The translations under genes were made by a program, and so were the position numbers. A DNA stretch of 64,000 nucleotides from Dictyostelium discoideum (taxonomy: Eukaryota): assembly GCA_000004695.1 (NCBI GenBank), contig CM000150.2, positions 1,888,001 through 1,952,000 of the forward strand, written 5' to 3'. Under the pieces are notes generated by a model. That model ran no database searches. It worked only from the letters and a program-made list of their open reading frames with translations, and was not told the DNA's origin. Positions 9,792-27,656 of this stretch are shown piece by piece (within the stretch, counting starts at the first letter, position 1; each line of letters starts with the position of its first letter).

Positions 9792-10656
9792 TTTTATTTT
9801 AATCCAAAGAAGAAAAAAAAGATTTCTACAAAACAAAACTTTCCGAATCTAATATAACCACCCATATGGGTTTATAAAAAAATTACAAACGAATATAAAA
9901 ATCGAATAACAAAAAAATAAATTATTAAAAAAATTTTATTCTTTAATTTTAAATCTATAAATATATTTTTTTTTTCTTTTTTTTTTTTTTTTTCAAAAGA
10001 TAGTACTATTTTTTATTATAAAATAACTTTAATTGTGACCAATTTAGAATATTGTTGGTTGTAATTTAATTTGATTAATTGATGATCAACTAATTCGATA
10101 ACTGATTTATTAAATTTCAATTCCACAGAAATATTGTCGCCTTTAGTTGAAATTTGTGAATCATTTAATTTGCATTTCAATTATTGGAGTTGAGTGATTG
10201 AAAGTGTAATTTTTACCATTTGGCCATTAATTCATCGGAATAGAACATGTTCTTACTTTTTGATGAATTTATACAGTTGAAATCCAACTCCAACCTAGTT
10301 AAAGCAAATGACCATTTCGAGTAATATCAATAACATTTGTTTGACTTGTTTAATATTAAAATTAATACATTAATTTATTAAAATACTCACTTATATTTAA
10401 TGCAAAATTAAAAAAATTATAATGAAATAAATAAAAAATATTGGTTTAATCTCTTTTTGTTTTTATTTTTTTTTTTTTTTATTTATTTTTTTAAAGAATT
10501 AAAATTTGTTAATGTTTATTCTATTTTTAACATTATAGCCCATAATTAAATACACCACAATAAAAATGATAATAAAATACAAAAATTTAAACATTCCCAC
10601 TTTAACAACACAAATCAAATACACAATAAAAATGTTGGAAAATGATTTTGGTTTAC

Positions 10657-10687
<31 letters not shown>

Positions 10688-10793
10688 TTTTTTTTTTATT
10701 ATTTTACAAACAATTATAGTAATTTCTTTTGTTATATTTGTTACTATTATCTTGTATATATAAGTATATTATTATTTATATTACTTTTGGTTA

Positions 10794-10936
10794 TTAAGAT
10801 TCGAAATATTTGGAAAAGAAACCTTTTATAATCGGAGTTTGATTACTTGGGCTTTGATTATTTGGAGTTGTAGAATTATTATTGTTATTACTATTATTAT
10901 TGAGATTGTTATTATTATTAATATTATTATTATTAC

Positions 10937-11023
<87 letters not shown>

Positions 11024-11152
11024 TATTATTATTATTATTATTATTGTTATTATTATTGTTATTATTACCACTATTATTTGGAGGTATTGTGGGCGTGTTA
11101 TTATTATTATTACTACTACTGTTAATATTATTATTATTATTATTAATATTAA

Positions 11153-11189
<37 letters not shown>

Positions 11190-12495
11190 ATTATTATTAT
11201 TATTATTATTCGCAATTGAAGATTGTAAAACTGTAGTTGTTACAGGTGAAGATGAACCAGATGAAGGTTTTAATTTATTTAACAAACTATTACTAGTGCT
11301 ATTGCTATTGGTTATGGAATTTTCACTTTTTAAATTATTTGTATTAACAGAATGATTATTATTATTATTATTATTATTATTAATATTATTATTATTATCG
11401 TTACTAATAATATTATTATTATTTCCTCCATCATGTACAGTTGAATTATTTGGACTTGTCCTTCCACTATTGTTTGAATTAACACTTGAATTTGGTGATG
11501 TTGGTGAAGATAATGATGCAAATGGATTGAAAAATCTAATTGCATAGGACTGTCCAGATTCTAAAACATTCTCTGTATTTAATTTAAATGTTTTATTCTT
11601 TAATGATAATGCTGTGGAATAAATAGTATGAAAATCAATTGTATTTGGATAAGCTTGTAATAGCTTTAATGAATCTGCAAATGATGATTTTAAAATTTGA
11701 TCTCTTACACAACTAAAAAAAATTAAAATGAAAAAAATAAATTAATTAATAATTCTATTGATTTATATATATAATTTAATTTATATATAACTTTTCACCT
11801 ACATTAACATTGAACAACAGAAAAAATATAATAAATCAAATCTATTTGGATCTGAAAATAATGCATCCCATAATCTTAATACATCTGGTAATTCAAATTC
11901 TTGGGATAATAATAATGTAATCCATCTAAAGCTATAAAATTGTGGATTCAATTTTTTATCTTCCTATAAAATTATAATTATTATTAGCATAATGATGATG
12001 ATGATGATTATTTTTTTTTATTTTTTTTCTTTTTTAAATAAAACTTACTAAATCAGTCCATAATTCTAAATCATTATCTTTTAAAATTCTATTTAATTTT
12101 TTAATACTACTGATGATACCAACATCAGATCTATCTAGAGTTTTACAAAAGTTATCACGAATTTCACTCATTAAACTTGTGAAACAATAGAATGAATCTG
12201 CTTCTGCATTTTTTTTACAATCTTGATCAGGATCAGTTGCAAAAATGTAATAAACATGACCCAATATTTCATTCATACCTTGAACGTATTTAATACCTGG
12301 ATTCAATTTTGCATAAATAAATAGAATACGTCTTAATGCCTCATAATGAATTGATTTACCATCCTCTTGTTGATAATTAAAGAAATGCATTGATGGAAAT
12401 GTTCTTCTAACATCTTTTTCAATATCTATTAATATGTTTTGATCTTTCCAATATTCATTCCATTTACTATCTGTTTGAACACTTAATGGCTAAAA

Positions 12496-12527
<32 letters not shown>

Positions 12528-13011
12528 TAAAAATAATAACAATAATAATAAATTAATATAAAATATATGATATTTATATATATATATATATGTGATGTAT
12601 ATAAAATAACATACATGATCAAATTCTTCTTGTTTTGGTGGTGGTGAATCACCTTTATATGGGTCAATCATTAATTCATTAATAAAATCTTGATAACCAT
12701 TTCTACTTTTTTTTAAATGAATTTCCCATTGTGTTCTATCTAATGGTAAATATCTTAATAAAATCTAAATTGTACGAATTTATTTATATTATTTAATATT
12801 AGTATTTTTAAAAACAATGATTATTATTATTATTAATATTTTAATTAATTTTTATTTTTTTCCATACCTTCCAATAACATGCTCTTAAACCGTGTGATTC
12901 TGGAATTCCTTGCTCTGCAAGATGTTGGATGATACTAATATCAATTGATGATGGCTTTAATGCTTCCTTATAATAGTGAACTCTTTCATTAAATGATGGA
13001 ATGGATGACAT
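10794..13011 (-). CDS. TBC-domain Rab GTPase-activating protein, five exons: 13011..12868, 12769..12615, 12489..12049, 11963..11803 and 11712..10794. It has a long Asn-rich C-terminal tail.
   Basis: The TBC catalytic motifs are present: arginine finger IDIEKDVRRTFP and glutamine finger YVQGMNEILG. Other TBC signatures are RACYWK at the N-terminus and FYSFRWITLLLSQEF. All introns carry GTATGG, GTATGT, GTAAGT or GTAGGT donors and AG acceptors, and all keep the frame. The final exon carries about 100 Asn residues, encoded by (AAT)n read from the (ATT)n plus-strand tract at 10880-11215. Confidence 0.85.
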
Positions 13012-13920
13012 TCTTTATTTTATTTTATTTATTTTTTTTAAATTGATTGAAGAAAAAAAAAAAAAAAAAAATGAAAAAAAGAAAATAAAAATTATTAAAA
13101 TGGGATTAAATTAAAAAAAAAAAATAAAAAAAATAAAAAAAATTATAATTTCTTGTTTTTAATTAATTTTTATTATTATAATTCTTATAAAACTAAAATA
13201 ATGTTTATGTGTTTTTTTTTTTTTTTTTTTTTTTTTGATATGTTTATTATTAAACCACCTTTCAAGTGTCAAAATTTTTAAAAAAAATAAAAAAAAAAAA
13301 AAAAAAAAATTTAAAAATAAAAAAAAAAAAAATTTAAAAATACAAAAAAAAAAAAAAATTTAAAATAAAAAAACTCTGAGAGTTTATTTTAATAAAAGTA
13401 ATAATAAATAAAATAGAGTTTATTTTAATAAAAGTAATAATAAAACCTTTTTTTTATTTTTTCCTTTTATTATTATTATTTTTTTATTATTTGTTTTTTT
13501 ATTTTTTTTATTTATTTTTTTATTTTTTATTTTTTTTATTTATTTTTTTTATTAATAAAAATAAAAGAAAAATACTAAAAACATAAAAATATTATTGTTT
13601 ACCATTAGTATTTTAATAACTATTCTTTATATAGAATTTTTAAATTTCGATGCAAAACCCTCCCAATTTTCTTTTTTTTTTTTTTTAATTTAAATTTATT
13701 ATTTTTAATTTTTTTTTTTTTTTTTTAATTTTTTTTTTTTTTTTAAATTTTTTTTTTTTTTTTCAAATATTTTCAAATTTTTTAACTGTCAAAAATTAAA
13801 TATTTGAAGTGAAAAATACAATTCGGATTATTATGAAAATTTATTAAAATTTCATTGATAATTTTTGTTTTTTTTTTTTTAATCTTACACATCAATATAT
13901 ATTTCTAAAAAAAAAATATA

Positions 13921-14587
13921 ATGTCCACTTCACCAACACATCATCAACAACAACAACAACAACATCAAACTTCACCAACGCACAATCAACACACTTCACC
14001 AACACATCAGCAACAACAACAACAACAACAACAACAACCAACTTCACCAATACACCAACAACAACAAAAACAAACTTCACCGACACACAATCAACCAACT
14101 TCACCAACAAATTCCTCAACTACAACAACAACAACCACAACAAATACAAATACATTAAAAACTCCAACCGACTTAATTAAAGAGAAATGTGAATCATCAT
14201 TACAACAACCTGATTCAATCATGTCAATTGAAGCATCATCCTTAATGAAAGAATACATCACAGTTGGTGGTAGACCACAAGTAAGTTATATTATTATTAT
14301 TATTATTATTAATAACCATAATAATAATTAAAATCATAAACTAATATATTATTGTGTGTGTGTGTGTGTGTAATAATTTAGGATGTTATTACATTTTTAT
14401 CGGAAAGTTATAGAGGATATGCACAAATGTGTAATTTATTATGTTATTGGTTAAAGATAGCAGGTATACCAGAAGAACAAATTCAAACTCAATTTTCAAA
14501 TCATTTAAAAGAAATCATAATAAATAAATTTGATCCAAAAGTTGCTGATACTATTTTTACTTCTGTATGTGTTATATCTTTATACCA

Positions 14588-14624
<37 letters not shown>

Positions 14625-16275
14625 ACAAATTTATTAATATATTAATAATTAATAATATATAGTCTAGTACACCACCACATTGGTTAGATGAAATGATAGT
14701 TGATTCACAATGGAGATCACTTATATATCAATTATCAGAAGAACATAAGAATTGTTTAATGTTAAATTTCATAATTCAAAGAATATCAGATTCAGGTTAT
14801 CAAAATGAAATTGCATCATTAAGTACTGCCTCAACATACTATAGAGTTTTTAATAAAGTTTTATTCGATTCATTAGCGGATTTAGTAACATTGGATGAAA
14901 TTTCATTTCGTCAACAATTGGATGAATTTAAAAAATCATGTTGTCAACATCAACATACTTATTTATACGCTCAAGCAACAATTCAAAATTTAATTAAAAA
15001 TAATCCTCAAAAAGCTTATAATTTAAAAAGAATTTCTCAAGAATTAGAAATAGAAGCAACTAAAAAGTAAAAAAAAAAAAAAAAATTCAAAATAATATAT
15101 AATTTATTATTATTATAATTACTAACTTTTTTATTTTATTTTATTTTTTTTTTTTTTTAGAAATAAAATTGCACAAAGAATTTCGTTAATGATGTCAAAT
15201 ATATCACAATATCCATTAATATCATCAAGTATAACATCATTGCTAATGAGTAATACAACAACAACAGGTGATATAATTAAATTATATAATGAATATACAA
15301 AAGCTCAACCACCACCAGTCGATTTTTTAAGGTATCCAAATTTATTGGAACTATTATTGAGTGATTTATTTTGTCCTGGTAAAGTCATTCAAAGTGTACA
15401 TAAGAGTAAATGGATTTATTTAGTGACCTATAGTGTTTGTATTAATAGTAGTAGTAGTAGCAATGAGAAAGATAATAATGTATTTAAAGATATTACACGT
15501 GCAATTGAAATAGTTCATAATATTTGTCAATCGAATCCATTAGGTTCAGAATTACAATCAGTTGTTGGTACTCTAAAAGATCATTTAGACTTTCCAATCA
15601 TTTCAATGGGTATAATGCAATGGATTAAACATAATCTTACTGACACTACAAATCTTTCAAGTTATAATACTTTATGTGTACCAATTTATTTAGATTTCTT
15701 AAGAGATGTAAGTTGTTTATTTATTTATTTATTTAAAAAAGTAAATTAATTTATTAACATATTTTTTTGAATAATAAAAATAATAGATTTGTTTAAGACA
15801 TCCATTACATAGATCAGTTGTATTAAATATATTAGTATCACATTTTGAAGTTGAAGCACAAGATTTAGAATCATTGGCAATATTAGAGATGAGAAAGAAT
15901 GTAATTGATAATATAGTTTATTTATTTAGTTGTGGTTATGTTATACCAGTTTTAGATACAATTGAAAGTTGGGCACCAAAAATTGATCCTTCCTTAACTC
16001 GTTACTTTATAAATCAAGTTTTAGATATAATCGAACCACCTTATTCTCAATCATTTATGGATAAAATGAAATCAATCATTAAAATCATTAATCCATTTGG
16101 TGAAAGTACAAAATTGGAACCATCTGTTCAAAGTTTTTTAGATCAATGTAAAAATCAATTAATTTTAAATAATAATAATAATAACAATAATAATAATTTA
16201 TCAACAAAAACTTCAACAAAAAGAAATAATACTGAAATTTATAATAATGAAGATGAAAATGAACAAGTATTTTAA
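13921..16275 (+). CDS. Negative elongation factor C/D (NELF-C/D, TH1-like), five exons: 13921..14280, 14382..14564, 14663..15066, 15161..15707 and 15787..16275.
   Basis: The ORF aligns to human NELFCD. GYAQMCNLLCYWL aligns to GFAQMANLLAEWL. KFDPKVADTIFT aligns to HFDPRKADSIFT. CLMLNF is identical. YQNEIASLSTAS aligns to YQGEITSVSTAC. HTYLYAQA aligns to HTYLFAQA. PPPVDFLRYP aligns to PPPVELIRVP. GYVIPVL aligns to GYVLPVV. Donors are GTAAGT, GTATGT, GTAAAA and GTAAGT. Intron 1 holds (GT)10 and intron 2 holds (TA)15. The N-terminal 90 aa are a His/Gln/Thr/Ser/Pro-rich low-complexity region. Confidence 0.8.
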
Positions 16276-16710
16276 TAAAAATAAAATAAAATAAAAAATC
16301 AAAGTCAAAATTAAAAAAAAATGAATTATGACATTCTAAAAAGCATATGTGTGAAAAAAAAAAAAAAAAGATATTTTTAGAACGATATGAGGTATAAAAA
16401 ACTGAATTTGAAATTGAAAAAAAAAAAAAAAAATAAAAAATTAAATAAATAAATTTAAAAATAACCTAACTGACGTTACATTTTTTTGTACCTTTTTAAC
16501 AATTCATTGAATTGTACCGATATCATTTTAAAATTTTTTTTTTTATTTTTTATTTTTTATTTTTTTTTTTTTTTTTTCTAATTCATTAAAAAAAAAAACA
16601 TAATAAAATTTTCAATTTTTGTAAAAAACACACAAATATAAAAACATATATATATATATATATATAAAAATTTAATTAATTAAATAAATTTATATTTTTA
16701 CGATTGTATA

Positions 16711-16751
16711 AATACCTCATCCCCCTCCTCCTACTCCTACTCCTCCTTCCC
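16711..16751 (+). promoter_or_regulatory. A 41-nt C/T-only tract (CATCCCCCTCCTCCTACTCCTACTCCTCCTTCCCTCCTCTC) that ends 30 nt before the ATG at 16782.
   Basis: It is a highly unusual composition for a Dictyostelium 5' flank. The position is consistent with a promoter or 5'UTR element, but no function can be assigned from sequence. Confidence 0.35.
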
Positions 16752-16781
16752 TCCTCTCAACTTTAAATTTCATAAATAAAT

Positions 16782-16997
16782 ATGAATTTCAGTGTTGAAG
16801 AGAAAACTCTTTTAGGTTTAGGTTTATTTAATATATTATTATTATTAATATTTATAATTCATTTTAGTATAATATATAATTTATCAAAAAAAAGAGTTAA
16901 AACATATGTAAATAATGGGCCCAATATAAACCCCACTTCGACAGATGACGAATATGGTATTGAATTAACTGATAATACTAAAAAAAATCAAATACCT

Positions 16998-17076
<79 letters not shown>

Positions 17077-18824
17077 TAATTAATAATGTAAATGAAAATT
17101 ATAATAGTAGTAAAAATATTAGAAAATTATTTAGATATATTGAATTTAAGAATAGAAGGAATTATATGGGATTAATGTCAGAATGTATTGCATCATTAAC
17201 TATATTTGAATTGTTGATATTGGTATTGGTTATGTTTGATAAATTACATATTGCAGCAGGAATTGTGTTGATGTTATTTGGATTTATTTTATTTTGGACA
17301 ATTTGGGTTGTACCAATTGACGATGATAAATTTTTAAAATCAACATTTAAAATTGAAAATGGTTTTAAAAGGTTCATTAAAAGACAATCATTTAAATTTA
17401 AAATTGGTAATTTAAAAAAGAACCAAAGATATTGGTATTGCTTAATACCAGCATTGACCGCGATACTATTGGTTACCATACTTTTAGAGGGAACTTGTGA
17501 GGACCAATTATCATTCATCGATTCGAGAATCATGAGAAAATATATGAATCCCACATGTGCGACTTCTGGCGAACCGTGTCTCATTTACCTAACATTAAAC
17601 CAACAACCAAGTACGAGTATAATTGCCAACTTTCACACCTCCTCGAGAAAGGGCGACCCCGAGCCCAACCCAATCTGTCTCTACGACACCACGCCTATGG
17701 GCAATAACACATCGGGCTATCGTTATATAGCCTATGGTAATTACTATAAGATGCCATTGGAGGTGATTAGATACGTCAATTGGGTGCATATTGAAGGATT
17801 GCAGCCAAAGACATCCTACTACTTCACCTGTGGAACTTGGAAAAACGGGTTCTCACATGAAAGAAAATTTAAAACTCAATCTGATAATCCAAAAGATGGT
17901 TATAGTTTTGTTGTGGGTGGCGATGTTGATATCACTGCCGATGCTGCCACTTTATTGAAAACCTCGGCATTGAAGAATCCAGATTTCGCAATGATTGGTG
18001 GTGATTTAGCTTATGACCATGCCCAATATACTTGCTATAGAATCGTTGATAAATGGCTAAACAATTGGCAATACAAAATGATATCGGCAACAGGTTATAC
18101 CATTCCTTTGATTGCTTCAATTGGTAATCATGAAGTAATTGGTGACTATGATGCACCCTCACACAGAATACCCTTCTTTAAGAGATATTTCCCACAAATG
18201 ACAAAACGAGAGGACCCTGGTGATGGCAATAATGTAGATGACAGGAAAACTTACAATACAATCAATATCGGTGGTCCAAATGGTACTGTAATCTTTAATT
18301 TAGATAGTGGTCATCATTCATCACTAAGTGAACAAGCAATTTGGATGAATCAACAATTATCATCATCACCATCATCATCTTCTTCAATGAATTTTAATTC
18401 AACTCAATTACGTTTCTCAATTTATCATGTACCAATGTATCCAACTATTAGAGAATATTCAAATCCAAAATCAACTGCTATTCGTGATAATTGGTTATCA
18501 ACTTTTGATAAATTTAAATTTAATATTGCTTTTGAAAATCATGATCATGCTTATAAACGTACTTTACCATTATTCAATAACACTGTTATTAATGGTACTA
18601 ATAGTGGTGGTGGTGGTCAATCTTCAACACTTTATATTGGTGATGGTAGTGCTGGAACTGGAATTAGGCCATTACCAAGTTCAAGTTTGAAGTGGTATCA
18701 AGCTTTTTCAAAATCAACTCATTATATTACACTTATCAATGTTATTCCAACAAATAGAACAATAACTTTCAATTCTTTCGATACAAATAATAGTACTTTT
18801 GATAGTGGTTATATTACTTATTAA
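16782..18824 (+). CDS. Membrane-anchored purple-acid-phosphatase-like metallophosphoesterase, single exon, 680 aa.
   Basis: The metallophosphatase motifs are present: GDVDITAD, GGDLAYD, IGNHE and the downstream HDHAYKR/GDG. They are preceded by a PAP-type N-terminal beta-sandwich (LQPKTSYYFTCG). N-terminal hydrophobic segments flank a run of about 30 Asn. Confidence 0.8.
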
Positions 18825-18872
18825 TAATAAAAAAAAAAAAAAAAAATAAAATAAAAAGTGATAAAAAGTTGA

Positions 18873-18902
<30 letters not shown>

Positions 18903-18906
<4 letters not shown>

Positions 18907-18934
18907 GGCTGGTCATTTTCCAGGTTGAAAACCT
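18903..18934 (+). terminator. Perfect 12-bp inverted repeat, TTTTCCAGGTT-GAAA-ACCTGGAAAA, lying 80 nt after the stop of the phosphatase gene.
   Basis: This is a GC-containing palindrome in otherwise pure A/T 3' flank. It is a candidate 3'-end or termination hairpin. Classification is by position only. Confidence 0.3.
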
Positions 18935-19302
18935 GGAAAAAAAATAAATAAAAAAAAAAAGGAAGATATTTTCATTTTTTTTTTTTTTTTTTTTTGATTA
19001 GTTTCCTAATAAAAAAATCAATTGGAATTTCACATTTTATTTTTTTTATTTTTTTTTTTATTTTTTTTTTTTAATTAAAAAAATGCAACAAAAAAATAAA
19101 AAATAAAAAATAAAAAATAAAAAATAAAAAAAAAATAAATAAATAAAAAAATTATTCTTCTTATCGAAAAGAAGTTGGTTGATTTTTTTTAATGAAACAT
19201 GACGATATGAATTATATACCTAATTCCTTTTTCCACGATTTCAGTTTTTTTTTTTTTTTTTTAATTTTTTTTTTTTTTTTTTTTTTTTTTTATTTTTTAT
19301 TT

Positions 19303-19334
<32 letters not shown>

Positions 19335-19602
19335 GATATTTCAAAATTTTGGAACAGAGACAATTGCTTAGAATAACAACAGTGTTCAATTGTTTTATTT
19401 TGTAAAATTACATATAGGGATTTGGTCACCACAATTACCCTTTAAAAATATTAATATTTATACATATATATATAAAATATAAAAAATAAAAAAAAAAAAA
19501 ATAAAAAAAAAAAAAAAATAAAAAAAATATATATAAAAATAATAAAAATATTGTAATAATACATATATATGTATAAATATAAATCATTTAAAAAATACAA
19601 TA

Positions 19603-19610
19603 ACCCATAA
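19603..19610 (+). promoter_or_regulatory. A third DUSE-like motif, ACCCATAA, with a GC-containing hairpin region 40-110 nt downstream and no clearly delimited RNA.
   Basis: The consensus octamer sits in an A/T desert. Downstream lie CCAGTCCAACTGG (palindromic) and GTGCACACTTTCATGTGTTTTTTCC (hairpin plus T6). Confidence 0.2.
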
Positions 19611-19946
19611 AAAAAAAATTAAAACCCTTAAAGGTAAGTCGGAAAGCCAGTCCAACTGGAATTTAAAATTTTTATTTGTGCACACTTTCATGTGTTTTTT
19701 CCAAATTTTTCAAAATTGGGCGCACAATTCCAAAAAATCTAGATTATTTTATTTTATTTTTTTTATTTTATTTTATTTTATTTTTTTTTTTTTTCAATTT
19801 TTTTTTTCTTGTAACCCTGTGCGAAAATTTTAACGTTAATTCACTCGAATTATTTTTATGATGAAATGGAGCGTCAAATGATGAATGTGAAAGAATGTCA
19901 TTTTTTTTTTTATTTTGTATTTTTTTTTAATTATTTTATTTTATTT

Positions 19947-19999
<53 letters not shown>

Positions 20000-20330
20000 C
20001 TTTCTTTTTTTGTGGTAATGAACAGTTGTAACTAAGGGTACATAAAAAAAAAAAACCCATCCCATCTTTGCCTTATATTTTTTTTAATAAATAAATTAAT
20101 TTTTTAATTATTAATTTTCTTTTTTTTTTTTTTTTTTTTTTTATTGTTGTTTATTATTATTTTGTTTTTTTTAAAAAAAATAAAATAAAATAAAATAAAA
20201 AAACATTATTTAGTTGTTGGTATTAGTAATTCACCTAATTTCTAAATTTGTTTTTACAATTCCTTAATAAAGGTATGTTTGAATCACATTCGATTAATAT
20301 AGTTTTTATTTTTTTTTATTTTTTATATTG

Positions 20331-21651: not shown

Positions 21652-23457
21652 ATGGGAGTACAACAACAATCGGAATTACCAAGTCAAACATCAGCAAAAT
21701 ATTTCTCACTTAGAGAAGATGTTAGTACAGAGTCATTATCAGATATTGATTCACAAACAGATATAAATAATACAGGAAATAGTGGTAAAGATTATAGTTC
21801 ACCACCAAGATTATCATTATGGGGGTGGTATACACCATCACAATATCGTGGTAATAGTAGTGGAGTCACTATGAAGAATTTATCAGCATCAGAGGACAGC
21901 ATTTCATTATCAAGTTTAGATCATCAACAACAACCAATGTTAATGGTAGATCATTCATCCAATAGTGATAACGAAGATGGTGCAACTGCTAAAGATTTTA
22001 AAATTGATATTCATTTAAAAGGTGAAGATGAAGATGATGGTAGTGGTGATACAAGAGTTAAATATAATACAAGAAATAGTGGTACTTTAAGAAATAGTAG
22101 TAATAAAACTCAAACTACAGTTTTAAATAATAGTACTACCAGCAGCAACAACATCAATAACAACAACGACAAAGAAATCAATATTACAACTTTAGGTGGT
22201 AGTACAAATTCAACTACTAAATTTTTATATTCAAGTGTCGATCAATCAAATGGTTCAACCATTCGATATCCATATTCTCCTTCTTATTCGGATGCAACTT
22301 TTTCAATTTTAAGTGGTGTTGTCATTTTATTTTCAATAATTTATTCTTTATTAGTTGGTCCAATTGTAATTATATTTTTTTTTAATATCTATATTCTTTA
22401 GTATTTTAATACTAACTTTTTTTTTTTTTTTTTTTTTTAGCAAATTATGTTTGCATTTTTAGTATCAATTTTAGTATTTATATCATATATTTGTGCAAGT
22501 TTTGCAGCAAATAACAGGATTTATTTATATTCAATCACAGCTTTGGCAGTTGGATTAGGTTTAACTATTCCATCATTTTTTGCAGCAACAGGTGCAGTTG
22601 TTTTAGGTACTGGTAGAGATAAATCAACTTGGGATGTAGAATTATTTAAATCTGATCAGTATGTATTTTTGTGTATATGAAAAATTATTTTAATTATTAT
22701 TATTATATTCTAATATTATTATTATTTAAATAGAGTTTTAATGGGATGGATGTGGCCAAAAGGTCAAATGGCAATTTTTGTAGATGAAAGTACAATTATT
22801 GGACCAGATTCATTTATTGGTAAATTATCAACAGAAATTCTTCAATTATCATATATCAGTTATTATATTTGGGGTTATTTTATGGAGATTTATATTTTAT
22901 ATAATTTATGGAGATGTCATTTATCAAAGGACCCACAACAACAAAAGATGATGCCAATCTGGGATCAAAGATTAAAAATGTTTATTTGCTCATGGATTTC
23001 AACTTACTTTATAGTGTTTTCTATTAATTTAATATTCCCAGCTGTTAGTCCAAGAGTTTATATTGGTAAAACTTTAAATCTCTATAACAATACCTTGGAG
23101 GGTTTTGGTTTCGCTGGTTTTGTACGTAGTAGAATTGATAATGCAGCAAAAGGTTCATTTGGTTCATTCCCTTCTGGTCATATAGCAACTTCATTTGCAA
23201 TTGGTTTATCAAGTTATAAGATTTTACCCGCTTATGGTTTCGTTTCAACAATTGCTGCAATCTTAATCGCAATTGCTACAATGTATTTACGTTATCATTA
23301 CTTTGTCGATTTCTTAGCTGCTTTACCTGTGACCATCTTTTGTTTATTATATGGTGGTTTCTATACACCTTCCGACTTTAAAAATGTTTTTGTAAATTGT
23401 TTTTACTCGATAAAATCAATCTTTCAAAATATTTTATCAAAATTTAATAATAAATAA
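21652..23457 (+). CDS. PAP2-superfamily membrane protein (AUR1/IPC-synthase or sphingomyelin-synthase-like), three exons: 21652..22365, 22441..22658 and 22734..23457.
   Basis: The PAP2/LPT motifs are present: C2 SFPSGHIATSF and C3 YLRYHYFVDF (R..H...D). There are multiple TM helices and an N-terminal Ser/Asn-rich region. Intron donors are GTAATT and GTATGT, with AG acceptors at 22440 and 22733. Phases are consistent. Confidence 0.7.
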
Positions 23458-23596
23458 TAAATCTATTTAAAAAATAATAATGAATAAATAAATAAATTAT
23501 TTAATTAATCAATAAAAAAAAAAAAAAAAAAAAAAAAAACAAATAAATAATAATAATAATAATGGTTTTTTTTTATATAAATAATTTTATTTTATT

Positions 23597-24436
23597 TTAT
23601 TTTATTTTAATTAAATTATTAAATATTTTAATAATTATAAATATTAAAATTATAAAAAATGTAAGACAAGTAATAAGATTACCTTTGGTTTTTGAATCAA
23701 GGTGTGAAAATAATGATGAACTAACAATGACGAAAATTATTAATTGAAATAAATCAATTAAAGAGTTTTGATAATTTCTTGATAATTTTTTAGTTTTTTT
23801 AGTTTGTAATAAAATAAAATTAAAACTTTGATAAAATATTTCAATACCAATAATAATTAAAAGATAATTCTTATAATTGAATATCATTGATAATGATAAT
23901 GAAATGAAAATTGTTGTTTTTAAAAATACTAATAATTCTAACCATCCAAATTGATTTTTATAATTCAATTTTAATATCAGTTGATGGAATTGATTAAATT
24001 TCAAAATTATTCTATTTTGATAGGGTGGTTGATTTAATTTTAGAGATTTTCCACTACTAATACCACTATTAATATTACTACTTCCTCTACTAATATAAAA
24101 GTTTCTTATGTTATTAATTATTGGATTTAAAAATAAAATTATTAAAAATAATGATATTATTACTATTATAATAATTGCTAATGTGAATAATGTAATTTGT
24201 AAATAATTATCATTTAAATAATAGATTGTAAAATCTAAAGCTGAAAAATGATTACCATCAACTTCTTTTGAAACTAATAATGATATGGAATTAAAAAATA
24301 GTGGTATGAAAAGAACTTGAAATAATGACCAATATGAATTTAATTTATAGTTTCCATTACTTTTAAGATTTCTATTTGAAATTGTTTTAATAAATTTTGG
24401 TATTATGATATTGTTACCTTGTTGAGATAGTTTAAA
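23597..24436 (-). CDS. Six-TM hydrophobic ORF of about 280 codons that lacks its own ATG. It follows the stop of the upstream large ORF in the same frame.
   Basis: The frame is open immediately after the TAA at 24437-24439. It encodes six hydrophobic stretches of about 20 aa (LFQVLFIPLFF..., LQITLFTLAIIIIVIISLFLIILFL, LELLVFLKTTIFISLSLSMIF, LLIIIGIEIFYQSF, LIDLFQLIIFVIVSSSLF and LITCLTFFIILIFIIIKIF). There is no in-frame ATG before the fourth helix. Confidence 0.35.
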   Translation of the reverse strand, partial: FKLSQQGNNIIIPKFIKTISNRNLKSNGNYKLNSYWSLFQVLFIPLFFNSISLLVSKEVDGNHFSALDFTIYYLNDNYLQITLFTLAIIIIVIISLFLIILFLNPIINNIRNFYISRGSSNINSGISSGKSLKLNQPPYQNRIILKFNQFHQLILKLNYKNQFGWLELLVFLKTTIFISLSLSMIFNYKNYLLIIIGIEIFYQSFNFILLQTKKTKKLSRNYQNSLIDLFQLIIFVIVSSSLFSHLDSKTKGNLITCLTFFIILIFIIIKIFNNLIKIK

Positions 24437-26728
24437 TTATGAAAATAACAATAAATTGTTTGAGAATTGGCAAGAGTTAATAGTTAATGAAGAGTATGTT
24501 AAATTCATAAGACCACTTGATTCAATTAAAGAAAGAGAGAAAAAGTCGAGTTGGTTTTTTGCATAATTTGAACAAACATTACAATCTTTAAAATCTATTT
24601 GAGAAGAATTTGAATATAATAAATTTGGTGACTTACTAAAAAGATTTTCATTGATTGTACAATTTGAAAAAGTGATTTCAGAATCAAAAGATGTAATCAA
24701 ACCAGAATTAAAAGTATTATTATTGAAAATTGATGAACTAAAACTAAATACAGTTTCATTAAATATAAATAATGATATTGGAAAATCATCACCAACACCA
24801 CCATAATCTATAGATGAATCTAAAGTGAATGGAAATTTATCATTAACATTTAAAATAATATTATTGGTAAATATGAGATTATTAATTTCACTAGTGGTGC
24901 TAAATAATCGGGGTATTTCACTTAAAAAGAAAAAGTATTGATTTAAATAATTATTTGAAATTATGATATTATTGAACGAGGCATAATAGGCGAGATTTAT
25001 CATTCCAAATACAAATGACAATGGTATTTGATTATCTTTTAGAATGAAATTTGTAACATATATTCTATAGTCATAATGGCTAAAATGAAATGAACCAGAG
25101 TTATTCTGATAGAGAACATCTTGAATTGTAACAAATGATTTCGTTGAATTTATTAATGGTAATAATAAATTCCTCATAAAATTACAAGAATTAATTTTTA
25201 ACATAACATTTGAAGCAACAATAAATGGTGATTGATTAATTCCCACACCTTTATTATCTGTAATTATTGAATTACTTATAAAAGAGTTAAAGAGATACTT
25301 AAAGTTTGATGAAAATTGAAAAAATTCAATTTGACAAAAACAATTGGTCATTATTAAATTATCAATGAAACAATTTGAATCTTGACTAAATAAAATTGGC
25401 CTTTTTCCAAATAATGAATTTGAAATTTTAGAATTTGAAATTGATAAATTTGATTTAAGTAAATGAATTAAAGATGAATCTGGTGTATTAAAATTATCAA
25501 TTAAAATCATAATAATATCTAATGAGGAGTCTGAAAGGTGGAAAAAATCTTGAAAATTTGAATAACTTGAAATAAATTCTGTTTTTTCAATTTTTGAATG
25601 AGACTCAATACTTCTCAAAAAATGTGATGAACTATTTTCAAATTTACTATTATTTAGAAAAAGAGTTGATGATTTTAATGAAAATAAAAACCCATCATTT
25701 TTTAAATTATTTGTAATATATGATGTTGAGTTTAATACAAAATTACTGTTTTCACCATAAATTAAAAAATTTTCTAAACTTGCTTTAATATCAACATTTT
25801 CAAAGAAAACATTTGAATTTATAAATTCCATTGAACCAAGACAATCTAAACTTGAATCTCTTATATTAATTTGTATTGGATGATAATAATTATTATTAGT
25901 ATTACTACTATTAACTAATAGATTTGTTGATTTTTCATGTGGTGGTGATGATGATACTACTGTTGTTGTTGATATAAATTTTGAAAAAATTTCAATTGTA
26001 CTACAAGATGTTTTAAAATTTGAAATATTAATTGGTAAATAATTATTATTTGTATTTTTAATATTAAAAATATGATTATAATCATTGGTTACAACATTAA
26101 TATAATTTAAATCTAAATATAAATTATACCAACCACTTAAATAAAAAAAGTCAGATGAAGTGCATTCAATAAATTTGACTTTTTCAAATTTAATTATACC
26201 AATAGAGAATGAAAAAAGTGATGATCTTATAAAATTACTAATGGTAACATTGTAAAGTGAAACTGTAATTGGATTTATAGTATCACTATTAATAATTCGA
26301 GAACTACCATATTTCGATGAAGATGAAGTTATTAATGTATTTGAAATTGTTAAATTTGAATTTGAAATTGAAAATGTTGAAAATGAATTAAAATGATTAT
26401 TATTATTGTATATGATTTCCGAGTTATTTACAAACATTAAACTATTACTAATGATATCAAAGTAACAATCTATAAATATTGAATTATCAAAATTAATATT
26501 ATTTCCTCCTTTACAACCCAACATTAAAATAGTATCGAATAGTGAATCTTGAACTATGAGTTTAGATTCTTGTAGATTAAATTCCCATTGCTTTCTATTT
26601 ATAAATTTTGATTGATTGATAAAATTAACATTTGACTCCCATATGCTATAAAAAATAAATGCACTATCAAATGCATATAAATTTAAAATACAACCATTAA
26701 AAATTAAATTACTTTTTATTATTAACAT
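24437..26728 (-). CDS. Large Asn/Ser/Ile/Phe-rich repeat protein of at least 763 aa, possibly an extracellular beta-helix or adhesin-like protein. The 5' end is uncertain and may continue through the (AAT)n tract at 26830-26895.
   Basis: It is a long uninterrupted minus-strand ORF with degenerate internal repeats (NxS/T-rich, FxNN...). An in-frame open region continues upstream to about 27120 without an ATG. Confidence 0.5.
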   Translation of the reverse strand: MLIIKSNLIFNGCILNLYAFDSAFIFYSIWESNVNFINQSKFINRKQWEFNLQESKLIVQDSLFDTILMLGCKGGNNINFDNSIFIDCYFDIISNSLMFVNNSEIIYNNNNHFNSFSTFSISNSNLTISNTLITSSSSKYGSSRIINSDTINPITVSLYNVTISNFIRSSLFSFSIGIIKFEKVKFIECTSSDFFYLSGWYNLYLDLNYINVVTNDYNHIFNIKNTNNNYLPINISNFKTSCSTIEIFSKFISTTTVVSSSPPHEKSTNLLVNSSNTNNNYYHPIQINIRDSSLDCLGSMEFINSNVFFENVDIKASLENFLIYGENSNFVLNSTSYITNNLKNDGFLFSLKSSTLFLNNSKFENSSSHFLRSIESHSKIEKTEFISSYSNFQDFFHLSDSSLDIIMILIDNFNTPDSSLIHLLKSNLSISNSKISNSLFGKRPILFSQDSNCFIDNLIMTNCFCQIEFFQFSSNFKYLFNSFISNSIITDNKGVGINQSPFIVASNVMLKINSCNFMRNLLLPLINSTKSFVTIQDVLYQNNSGSFHFSHYDYRIYVTNFILKDNQIPLSFVFGMINLAYYASFNNIIISNNYLNQYFFFLSEIPRLFSTTSEINNLIFTNNIILNVNDKFPFTLDSSIDYGGVGDDFPISLFIFNETVFSFSSSIFNNNTFNSGLITSFDSEITFSNCTINENLFSKSPNLLYSNSSQIDFKDCNVCSNYAKNQLDFFSLSLIESSGLMNLTYSSLTINSCQFSNNLLLFS

Positions 26729-26829
26729 TGTTTCATTTTTAAAATTAAATATTAAATTATTTATTATTATATTTGAATTATTAAAATTTAGATTTATATT
26801 TTCTATTATAGTATTTTGATAATTATTTA

Positions 26830-26897
<68 letters not shown>

Positions 26898-27656
26898 TAT
26901 ATTATTGAGATATTATTTATATTATTTAAAAAAAATGTACAATATGTAGAATTATAAATTCCATATTCTATATTAATTATTATTGGTATTGGTTCGTTTA
27001 AAATTGAATTTAGTTGACAAAGACTTTTAAATGGATTTGTTATTGTTCCATTACCATTGTCATTGGCATTACTATTTATATAATAATTTGTAAATTGTTG
27101 TGATTTTACAATATTATTAATATAAATATTATTAAATAAAAAATAAAATTTGTTGTCATTTAAACATTTAATAATTATATTATATTATATTATTTATATA
27201 AAACTTAAACCAGAGAAAAGTAATTTTTAAATAATTAAAAAAAAAGTAAAAAAAAAAAAAAGTGATTATACATAAGGGGAGTTGCATATAAAATAAAAAA
27301 ATAAAAGTAAAAAAAAAAAGGCGAAAAACCCACAGCGCCACACAAAATTACTTTTCACTACTTTAAAATACAACTGAATTAATTTGAATGAAAATTATTA
27401 ATGGTCCTAATCTGTTACCATTACTACACTTTGAATATTTAATATTATAAACATTGAATATTTAAAAAAGAAAATTTAAATTATTTTTTTTTTTTTAAGG
27501 TAATGTTTTTTTTTTATTAAAATCTAAAATCTCTTTTAGGTTGTTATGTGTTTTTTTTTTTTTTTTTTTTAATTTGGATTGGTTAAAAAAAAAAAAAAAA
27601 AAATATATTTAAAAAAAAAAGTGAAATGAATAAATTTTTTAAAGTTATAAAAAATA

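Follow-up and report, generated by a model that had tools for sequence, protein, structure and literature searches.

The locus on chromosome 1 of Dictyostelium discoideum AX4 that carries gene model DDB_G0268930 is very probably a non-processed (unitary) pseudogene of the AX4 lineage, whose ancestor, a gene confined to dictyostelids, encoded a protein of ~1,600 aa. Compared with intact syntenic orthologues, it carries four lesions: a 4-nt frameshift deletion, a TCA>TAA substitution, a 1,289-nt deletion (deletion 1) and a 130-nt deletion (deletion 2). Deletion 1 shifts the reading frame and so produces the stop codon reported in a first-pass annotation of this DNA, and deletion 2 (remainder 1 on division by 3) restores it, leaving the last six transmembrane (TM) segments ‘in frame’. 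The restoration may be chance, with odds of one in three, or may stem from a single complex deletion event, and the long open reading frames (ORFs) would persist only through the recency of decay. The locus would yield no functional product.

The reading frame and its intact relatives

On the minus strand of the window (the whole 64,000-nt stretch of DNA analysed), an ATG at 26728 opens a 763-aa ORF (26728-24440) that stops at TAA 24439-24437, past which a further 279 codons of that frame are free of stops, up to TAA 23599-23597. The probability of a 279-codon open stretch by chance is ~9e-13 (P(stop per codon) = 0.0945 at local composition), and the remaining two frames across the same 837 nt contain 35 and 38 stops. 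Six TM-like segments lie 3' of TAA 24439-24437, and the earliest Met in this downstream part is residue 184, within the third of them. The first-pass annotation had described this arrangement (a 763-aa ORF, TAA 24437-24439, ~280 open codons and six TM segments), and the coordinates and a Kyte-Doolittle scan bear it out. The main frame also extends 5' of ATG 26728, to ~27184, across a second in-frame TAA (26899-26897), and the start of the 763-aa ORF is therefore not the true N-terminus. The 11 codons right after TAA 24439 (FKLSQQGNNII) have no homology in that frame; the conserved reading, CYFHNLNYLNKVTIS, lies in another.

A divergent D. discoideum isolate, D. citrinum and D. firmibasis each encode a syntenic orthologue as one protein of 1,567-1,624 aa (P0001, P0003 and P0004), with the gene in every case upstream of the same convergent PAP2 gene. 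The intact orthologues have a signal peptide and a beta-helix ectodomain, followed by PMP-like repeats (GG[AV]IY / FxxN) and a Cys-rich module, and end in nine TM segments; in all three proteins, the signal peptide leads directly into NIVKSQQ. The window is colinear with an intact orthologous locus (L001) over 24 kb. The exons of the AX4 gene model (P0002) match the window at 100%, and the gene is intact in GCA_054859355.1, which makes the difference from AX4 one of strain or lineage. That genome diverges from AX4 by about 8% over 24 kb, and were it a cryptic species, the pseudogene would be species-wide and not a strain variant. The polarity of the lesions follows from the intact arrangement in D. 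citrinum, D. firmibasis, D. purpureum and the paralogues. The first-pass proposal that both parts belong to one gene, encoding a large ectodomain and a C-terminus with several TM segments, thus holds in the paralogue/orthologue comparison, in which all intact relatives are fused. No complete nine-TM C-terminal domain was found in the window: six of the nine TM-like segments are left, and they align as TM4-TM9. The cysteines that are invariant among 12 family members (C1114-C1228 of P0001) have all gone from the window.

The parent beta-helix/nine-TM family is uncharacterised; it is confined to dictyostelids, evolves fast and has undergone tandem duplications, as well as losses in different lineages. 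A Pfam search of both window ORFs gave zero matches, and full-length family members (5-12) compared with Pfam and PDB sequence profiles gave nothing over threshold. The top Pfam scores among 12 family members were for PF13229 Beta_helix (E = 0.00098) and PF02415 Chlam_PMP (E = 0.0052); the latter match falls under its gathering cut-off, and no gathering threshold is reached by the family. Exact-product look-ups of the 763-aa ORF and P0002 returned no record from an index that apparently lacks the AX4 reference. A word-indexed homologue search with the C-terminal 721 aa of P0001 returned P0002 alone and missed its own parent; low-complexity words dominated it, and it was discounted. A literature search on DDB_G0268930 found no mention of it.

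The AF2 model of the 763-aa part is all-beta (pLDDT 83, pTM 0.81), and its Foldseek matches are all parallel beta-helices, with marginal scores (E 1e-4 to 1e-2, TM 0.1-0.37, 6-13% identity). From this modelling, the 763-aa part is predicted to be a right-handed beta-helix ectodomain. The AF2 model of the nine-TM domain, built on a 6-sequence alignment, was unusable (pLDDT 45).

Four lesions and their effect on the frame

At the 5' end, alignment to L001 locates the original start codon (27159-27157) and a signal-peptide remnant, MTTNFIFYLIIFILIIL (27106-27159, minus strand, as are all features below). The loss of 4 nt between 27116 and 27115 throws the signal peptide out of frame, and the frame from ATG 27159 halts after 17 codons at TAA 27108-27106. 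There follows, in the main frame and with no ATG in it, an N-terminal ectodomain coding remnant (IVKSQQFTNYYINSNANDNGNGT...NISII; 26900-27105) that corresponds to approximately the first 90 P0001 residues past the signal peptide. It ends at the nonsense codon TAA 26897-26899, about 90 codons into the gene, where the window has ATAATATAATAT and L001 has ATAATATCATAT; the ancestral TCA encodes the Ser of a conserved ...ISIIS motif, and this Ser is kept in P0001, P0003 and P0004. A further coding remnant, including an (AAT)n poly-Asn tract, connects this TAA with the annotated start (26729-26896; L001 alignment). The ATG at 26728 is itself a derived codon, with ATA (Ile) in L001, and translation from it would give a product without a signal peptide. 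No contiguous signal peptide and ectodomain were found in the window, the main frame having no ATG before TAA 26899. A tiny 38-nt ‘intron’ (GTAAAATC...AAATAG, ~27110-27073), which would rejoin the signal peptide to the main frame, was considered and rejected; it is too short, and the alignment is that of a plain 4-nt deletion.

The two large deletions were mapped by k-mer and base-level comparison of three blocks, the offsets of which differ by 1,289 and 130 nt. The first block is the body of the 763-aa ORF (24455-26728), which encodes the beta-helix ectodomain in the ancestral frame and is colinear with L001 9920-12732 at 92% identity. Junction 1 (24450-24454) is the breakpoint of the 1,289-nt deletion (L001 ~12729-14016) and has T/ATT microhomology. 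The deletion removed 1,166 coding nt together with the only intron of the gene (123 nt, ~13052-13174 in L001), and the PMP-like repeats and the Cys-rich module lie entirely within it. The second block is a 51-nt exon remnant (24404-24454; L001 14017-14067) that encodes CYFHNLNYLNKVTIS in the ancestral frame and is identical at 51/51 positions, the TAA nucleotides included. In the ancestral frame, these nucleotides are part of ...T CAT AAT T... (His-Asn), out of frame with the stop and without a base change relative to the intact orthologue. Because the 1,166 coding nt lost leave a remainder of 2 on division by 3, the intact CAT-AAT of the remnant is now read as TCA-TAA.

Junction 2 (24404-24405), with TA microhomology, is the breakpoint of the 130-nt deletion (L001 ~14068-14195), which took most of TM3 and the following loop and brought the ancestral frame back. 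That frame resumes beyond the 51-nt remnant because 1,289 + 130 = 3 x 473. The third block is the C-terminal remnant (23597-24403), colinear with L001 from 14196, in which the post-TM3 loop and TM4-TM9 are read in the ancestral frame up to the genuine stop, TAA 23599-23597. Against a profile of the TM domain, P0002 covers positions 143-372 only, and most intact members match from position 1. Around TAA 24439-24437, about 432 codons are absent relative to the intact orthologue.

Relocation of the deleted segment, considered on account of a 78-nt piece at 27442-27365, was rejected. Because the intact strain has the same piece and more decayed pieces upstream, this piece must be left over from a tandem paralogue of greater age.

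All four lesions are present, base-identical, in an independent assembly (GCA_054883475.1), and they are therefore not sequencing errors. Between 23400 and 27500, that assembly is identical to the window bar one poly-A length; elsewhere in 22 kb, it differs by 16 mismatches and 17 indels. The ratio of nonsynonymous to synonymous changes (N/S) is 25/8 on the AX4 branch (omega ~0.8) and 30/18 on the sister branch (~0.4), a difference that lies in the expected direction but falls short of significance (Fisher P = 0.24). The AX4 branch shows a single new stop, against 3.5-4.2 expected under whole-branch neutrality, which likewise falls short of significance (P = 0.08-0.14), and persistence of the ORF requires no selection, since the stop count is compatible with neutrality.

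The annotated intron and other readings of the locus

Two public gene models present the locus as a protein: the AX4 reference has DDB_G0268930 (XP_646860.1 / Q55F10, 987 aa), and a new assembly has ACTFIT_008187 (KAM9941620.1, 1,017 aa). Both cross the stop codon by a probably invented intron, a 78-nt in-frame segment (GTTATT...CAAATAG, 24372-24449) that spans the TAA, and the AX4 model has two more ‘introns’ of 45 nt. The 78-nt ‘intron’ is most likely an annotation artefact. It does have GT...AG ends and can be removed without loss of frame; in a control, however, an in-frame GT...AG bridge was available for 88% of the codons in the gene, and a bridge at the TAA is thus uninformative. In every orthologue, the counterpart of the 78-nt segment is exon (the 51-nt remnant plus IPKFIKTISNR), and neither a position shared with an orthologue intron nor a non-exonic origin was found for it, the true family intron having been deleted. 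Its donor is GTT, whereas the verified introns here all begin with GTA (GTATGT in L001; GTAATT and GTATGT in PAP2). Its AT content is exon-like (80.8%, against 92.7% in the L001 intron), and no CTAAT-type branch motif was found in it; genome-wide, introns have an AT content of 89.1% and an ACTAAT motif (PMC2483917).

These observations bear directly on the possibility that the segment is spliced out and that translation from ATG 26728 gives AX4 a protein of 987 or 1,017 aa. A broader version holds that a former exon (24449-24372) is now an intron and that, with the new ATG 26728, AX4-type strains make a ~1,017-aa signal-less protein with a beta-helix and a six-TM bundle; if true, this would be intronization rescuing a deletion allele, caught in the act, with a new architecture. 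In favour of splicing are the GT-AG ends, a length divisible by 3 and within the real intron range here (PAP2 ~72 nt), the choice of the segment by two pipelines and the intact downstream frame. We nevertheless consider it unlikely, and the broader version equally so, given the exonic origin of the segment, the different place of the true intron, the donor, the composition, the absent branch motif and the ease of bridging, on which the first-pass suggestion of a non-consensus intron also founders. The first-pass picture of a joined protein with a six-TM anchor fares no better: the six segments are what remains at the end of a nine-TM domain, the fused product would have no signal peptide, no PMP-like repeats or Cys-rich module and no TM1-3, and, with the TAA bypassed, the ectodomain would join a cytoplasmic loop (positive-inside rule). 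The junction peptide unique to the locus would be ...CQFSNNLLNLKSNGNYK...

Programmed readthrough of TAA 24439-24437, another first-pass idea, would connect both parts, and the open downstream frame is its sole support. TAA is generally the least leaky stop codon. Orthologues have no stop here (CAT-AAT, in another frame), and the TAA is a frame artefact; readthrough would moreover cross 11 codons of out-of-frame junk in a gene whose start codon, signal peptide and reading frame are lost upstream, and we hold it to be very improbable. It is quite unlikely, in turn, that the degraded locus still expresses the 763-aa beta-helix ORF from ATG 26728 as a truncated, signal-less product with a residual or new function. 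The derived ATG after the upstream nonsense codon, the 763 open codons and the confident beta-helix model would fit such a product, but ORF persistence fits neutrality (branch omega ~0.8), an ectodomain rich in N-glycosylation sequons and containing Cys would be stranded in the cytosol, and the upstream region is also partly deleted in AX4. An error of sequencing or assembly in the reference has prior plausibility in AT-rich, homopolymer-rich DNA and is next to inconceivable given the second assembly; losses as large as 1,289 and 130 nt, with short microhomology at the breakpoints, are not homopolymer errors either. Where the first-pass annotation had offered sequencing error or strain polymorphism, the lineage difference stands and the error falls. 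Equally negligible is the chance that one recent nonsense substitution broke up an otherwise intact gene or that the two ORFs are separate genes, as one TAA in one frame might superficially suggest. Both are refuted by alignment to L001, L002 and L003: a stop of unchanged nucleotides, out of frame after the 1,289-nt deletion, is no point mutation, and the downstream part, without an ATG until residue 184, is only the tail of a domain and is a separate gene in no relative. The first-pass suggestion of a pseudogenising nonsense mutation was accordingly right about the pseudogene and wrong about the mutation at TAA 24439-24437.

Some features of the locus could be argued to reflect selection for a shortened product, namely a combined deletion length divisible by three and the position of the new ATG 26728 just downstream of the nonsense codon. 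The protein-coding call comes from two independent annotation pipelines.

The unitary pseudogene reading is of value mainly because it corrects the annotation and serves as a warning. Paired deletions that total a multiple of three can look like a site of readthrough or recoding, and in AT-rich genomes a gene finder nearly always has an in-frame GT...AG bridge at hand. Judged from sequence comparison, the locus is very probably an ordinary unitary pseudogene.

Comparison with known systems

With other unitary pseudogenes, the locus shares an intact syntenic orthologue in sister lineages, several independent disabling lesions (deletions with microhomology among them), introns and flanks that are kept and not stripped by retroposition, and the absence of an intact copy at the locus. 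Unlike the usual cases, its deletions total a multiple of three, the downstream frame is kept and the locus passes as a two-part gene, protein-coding in two public annotations. Stop-codon readthrough likewise involves an in-frame stop with a long open frame beyond it; in contrast to programmed readthrough, neither the stop nor the sequence right after TAA 24439-24437 is conserved in orthologues. Intronization of an exon with a premature stop has both of these features in common with the locus, as well as a GT...AG segment (multiple of 3) across the stop, but the splice signals in the window are non-consensus and the gene is separately inactivated at its 5' end.

Among protein families, the closest is the dictyostelid beta-helix/nine-TM family, all members of which are uncharacterised (among them the intact D. 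discoideum paralogue DDB_G0272102 [Q55A59, 1,652 aa], D. purpureum DICPUDRAFT_76333 and T. lacteum DLAC_10607). The locus shares with it synteny, the beta-helix ectodomain and 88% identity to P0001 over the kept parts, and its TM4-TM9 align to the family column for column; unlike the family, it has no usable start codon or signal peptide, no PMP-like repeats or Cys-rich module, no TM1-TM2 and only a small part of TM3. The predicted fold class is that of right-handed parallel beta-helix proteins (PL6 alginate lyases, AlgE/AlgG epimerases, phage tailspikes, the Ag43 autotransporter passenger and Chlamydia PMP repeats), which some family members also resemble at sub-threshold level through PF13229/PF02415. 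Unlike these, the dictyostelid protein is eukaryotic, and its anchor is a multi-TM domain rather than an autotransporter barrel.

Open frames and a double deletion at DDB_G0268930

On the minus strand of the window, which is ~20% GC and has short, AT-rich introns, a 763-aa open reading frame (ORF) extends from ATG 26728 to TAA 24439-24437 and is followed, in the same frame, by 279 open codons up to TAA 23599-23597. The first-pass annotation had described a large repeat ORF separated by a single in-frame TAA from a six-transmembrane (TM) frame, and the same arrangement was seen again here: hydropathy scanning 3' of TAA 24439-24437 reveals six TM-like segments, the remaining two frames of the 279-codon stretch contain 35 and 38 stops, and the probability of 279 open codons by chance is ~9e-13, with stops expected every 10-11 codons from local base composition. 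The first Met of the downstream frame is residue 184. The 763-aa frame also continues 5' of ATG 26728, reaching ~27184 through a second in-frame TAA (26899-26897), and a signal-peptide-like ORF, MTTNFIFYLIIFILIIL* (ATG 27159, minus strand), lies directly 5', in a different frame.

Searching for homologues of the conceptual product recovered the AX4 model DDB_G0268930 (987 aa), all exons of which match the window at 100%, along with much longer relatives: a paralogue, a D. purpureum protein, and proteins from D. citrinum (1,567 aa), D. firmibasis (1,578 aa), and assembly GCA_054859355.1, labelled 'D. discoideum' (1,624 aa). These last three are syntenic, lying directly 5' of the same convergent PAP2 gene, and over ~24 kb the window and the GCA_054859355.1 locus (L001) are colinear at ~92% identity.

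This colinearity is broken exactly at TAA 24439-24437. Window 27263-24450 is a colinear match to L001 9920-12732, window 24454-24404 is identical to L001 14017-14067 (51/51), and window 24405 onward is a colinear match to L001 from 14196. Because these three blocks map at shifted L001 offsets, the window lacks 1,289 nt (deletion 1) and then 130 nt (deletion 2), with junction microhomologies T/ATT and TA. The single canonical intron of the L001 gene (G|GTATGT...AAAG|A, 123 nt, ~13052-13174) falls within deletion 1, so that 1,166 of the nt lost there were coding (2 modulo 3); the 130 nt of deletion 2 are 1 modulo 3, and both together amount to 1,296 coding nt (432 codons). Translated in the ancestral frame, still readable in another frame of the window, the 51-nt remnant gives CYFHNLNYLNKVTIS. 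After deletion 1, it is read one frame off, TTT-CAT-AAT-TTA becoming ..T-TCA-TAA-TTT; TAA 24439-24437 is unchanged His-Asn nucleotides, and the last six TM segments appear 'in frame' because deletion 2 restores the ancestral frame. Lost are the PMP-like GGxIY / FxxN repeats, a Cys-rich module, the first two TM segments (TM1 and TM2), and the greater part of TM3 with the loop after it.

The 5' end, the neighbourhood, and the age of decay

Relative to L001, 4 nt are missing between 27116 and 27115, within the signal peptide, so that the frame opened by the original ATG is 17 codons long, and a C>A change has converted a conserved Ser codon (TCA) into TAA 26899-26897. The main frame has no ATG 5' of this TAA, and the annotated start, ATG 26728, is itself derived (L001 has ATA, Ile). 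Since D. citrinum and D. firmibasis are intact there, with no break between signal peptide and ectodomain and with the Ser kept, the 5' lesions of the window are derived states.

Directly after TAA 26899-26897, an (AAT)n poly-Asn tract (26840-26896, minus strand) exceeds its L001 counterpart by 15 nt, which is ordinary microsatellite variation inside former coding sequence. A 78-nt piece at 27365-27442 (minus strand), ~215 nt 5' of the original ATG, is homologous to coding sequence of the family's TM1-TM2 loop (KYS.CSNGNRLGPLIIFIQINSVVF); this piece also occurs in the intact strain, together with additional decayed TM-domain fragments, at L001 9101-9602, and was probably left behind by an older tandem paralogue upstream. 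Window 27263-27365 spans ~100 nt vs ~750 nt of intergenic or relic sequence at L001 9174-9920, another AX4 deletion in the would-be promoter region of the focal gene.

The convergent PAP2-family gene (PF01569; 21652-23457, plus strand) has two short introns (GTAATT...TTTAG and GTATGT...AAATAG), and only ~140 nt, rich in A/T homopolymers, separate its stop from that of the focal gene; within this spacer, the poly-A length at 23514-23518 varies between assemblies. In D. firmibasis, two intact tandem family copies of 1,578 and 1,654 aa (at 10001-14815 and 15000-20044 of its locus, L003) sit between a Mak10/NAA35 gene and the PAP2 gene; in group-4 dictyostelids, copies at this locus are thus duplicated in tandem and lost.

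When D. citrinum serves as the outgroup, N/S counts are 25/8 on the AX4 branch (omega ~0.8) vs 30/18 (~0.4) on the sister branch, a non-significant difference (P = 0.24). Both are far above the 4/11 of neighbouring genes, and the family is thus fast-evolving in any case. The AX4 branch carries ~63-76 substitutions, 5.5% of possible changes create stops, and one new stop was observed vs 3.5-4.2 expected if the whole branch were neutral (P = 0.08-0.14). Because this count is compatible with neutrality, no selection is required to explain why the long ORFs survive, and their survival is in keeping with decay of fairly recent date.

Alternative readings of the stop codon

Sequencing error, among the explanations first offered for the TAA, is refuted by the independent assembly GCA_054883475.1 (99.6% identity to the AX4 window). 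Its locus (L004), found by exact-match look-up of a neighbouring 680-aa ORF, shows 16 mismatches and 17 indels against the window in 22.1 kb, equals it over 23400-27500 apart from one intergenic poly-A run length, and carries all four lesions base for base. Strain polymorphism is partly borne out, GCA_054859355.1 having an intact gene, but this assembly is ~8% from AX4 across the region (~92% identity over 24 kb of window 13676-36360; 96.6-98% in PAP2 exons). Such a difference is far above usual D. discoideum diversity, and GCA_054859355.1 may therefore be a cryptic sister species or come from a lineage that has diverged strongly. Readthrough into the downstream frame finds no support, because the stop is absent there in all orthologues, the gene's own start is unusable for translation, and the 11 codons 3' of the TAA are frame-shifted remnant.

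The suggested non-consensus intron, GTTATT...CAAATAG (24449-24372, 78 nt), is exactly the segment with which the AX4 model bridges the TAA, and the L004 model ACTFIT_008187 (1,017 aa; exact look-up of the reconstructed product) uses it too. It is nevertheless made of former exon sequence, has a GTT donor vs GTA in every verified intron here, and is exon-like in AT content (80.8% vs 92.7% for the orthologue's intron); introns genome-wide average 89.1% (PMC2483917). In a control, an in-frame GT...AG of 45-150 nt could bridge 88% of arbitrary codons in the focal gene, so the gene finder's bridging of the stop is uninformative. Two extra 45-nt 'introns' of DDB_G0268930 (26469-26513 and 25645-25689, minus strand), which remove in-frame CKGGNNINFDNSIFID and FLFSLKSSTLFLNNS, are likely prediction artefacts, since both regions remain coding in orthologues and in the ACTFIT model. 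Only one reading has any novelty, namely that the 78-nt segment now serves as a genuine intron in a short isoform that is expressed, and we regard it as very improbable.

We conclude that DDB_G0268930 is an ordinary unitary pseudogene in which a double deletion happens to keep frame; pseudogenisation had been proposed correctly as a category, but not as a nonsense mutation at codon 24439-24437. Lesions and frames were observed directly; from the missing start codon and signal peptide, the 432 missing codons, and a mismatch in topology—without three TM segments, the ectodomain would be joined to a loop rich in K/R and probably cytoplasmic—we infer that the locus has no function. It looks like a case of recoding or unusual splicing, and two annotation pipelines were misled by it.

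The parent family

When 1.84 billion cluster representatives were searched exhaustively with a HMMER profile of the nine-TM domain, only 21 matched, most of them 1,300-1,950 aa long with a complete C-terminal TM domain. Matches whose source was looked up are all dictyostelid (Dictyostelium spp., Tieghemostelium lacteum), one EukProt entry aside. AX4 keeps intact paralogues (e.g. DDB_G0272102), and DDB_G0268930 is exceptional in that its match is restricted to profile positions 143-372.

No family member searched reached a Pfam gathering threshold (weak hints only: Beta_helix, Chlam_PMP, and Ephrin_rec_like) or had a significant PDB sequence match. An AlphaFold2 model of the 763-aa ORF (13-sequence alignment; pLDDT 83, pTM 0.81) is confident and all-beta, with a regular three-strand repeat, and its Foldseek matches in the PDB, with marginal scores, are uniformly right-handed parallel beta-helices, among them PL6 lyases, alginate epimerases, tailspikes, and Ag43; the 'extracellular-type repeat protein' of the first-pass annotation thus holds as a predicted fold class. 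Judging by the architecture, the family may consist of surface proteins that resemble adhesins or receptors.
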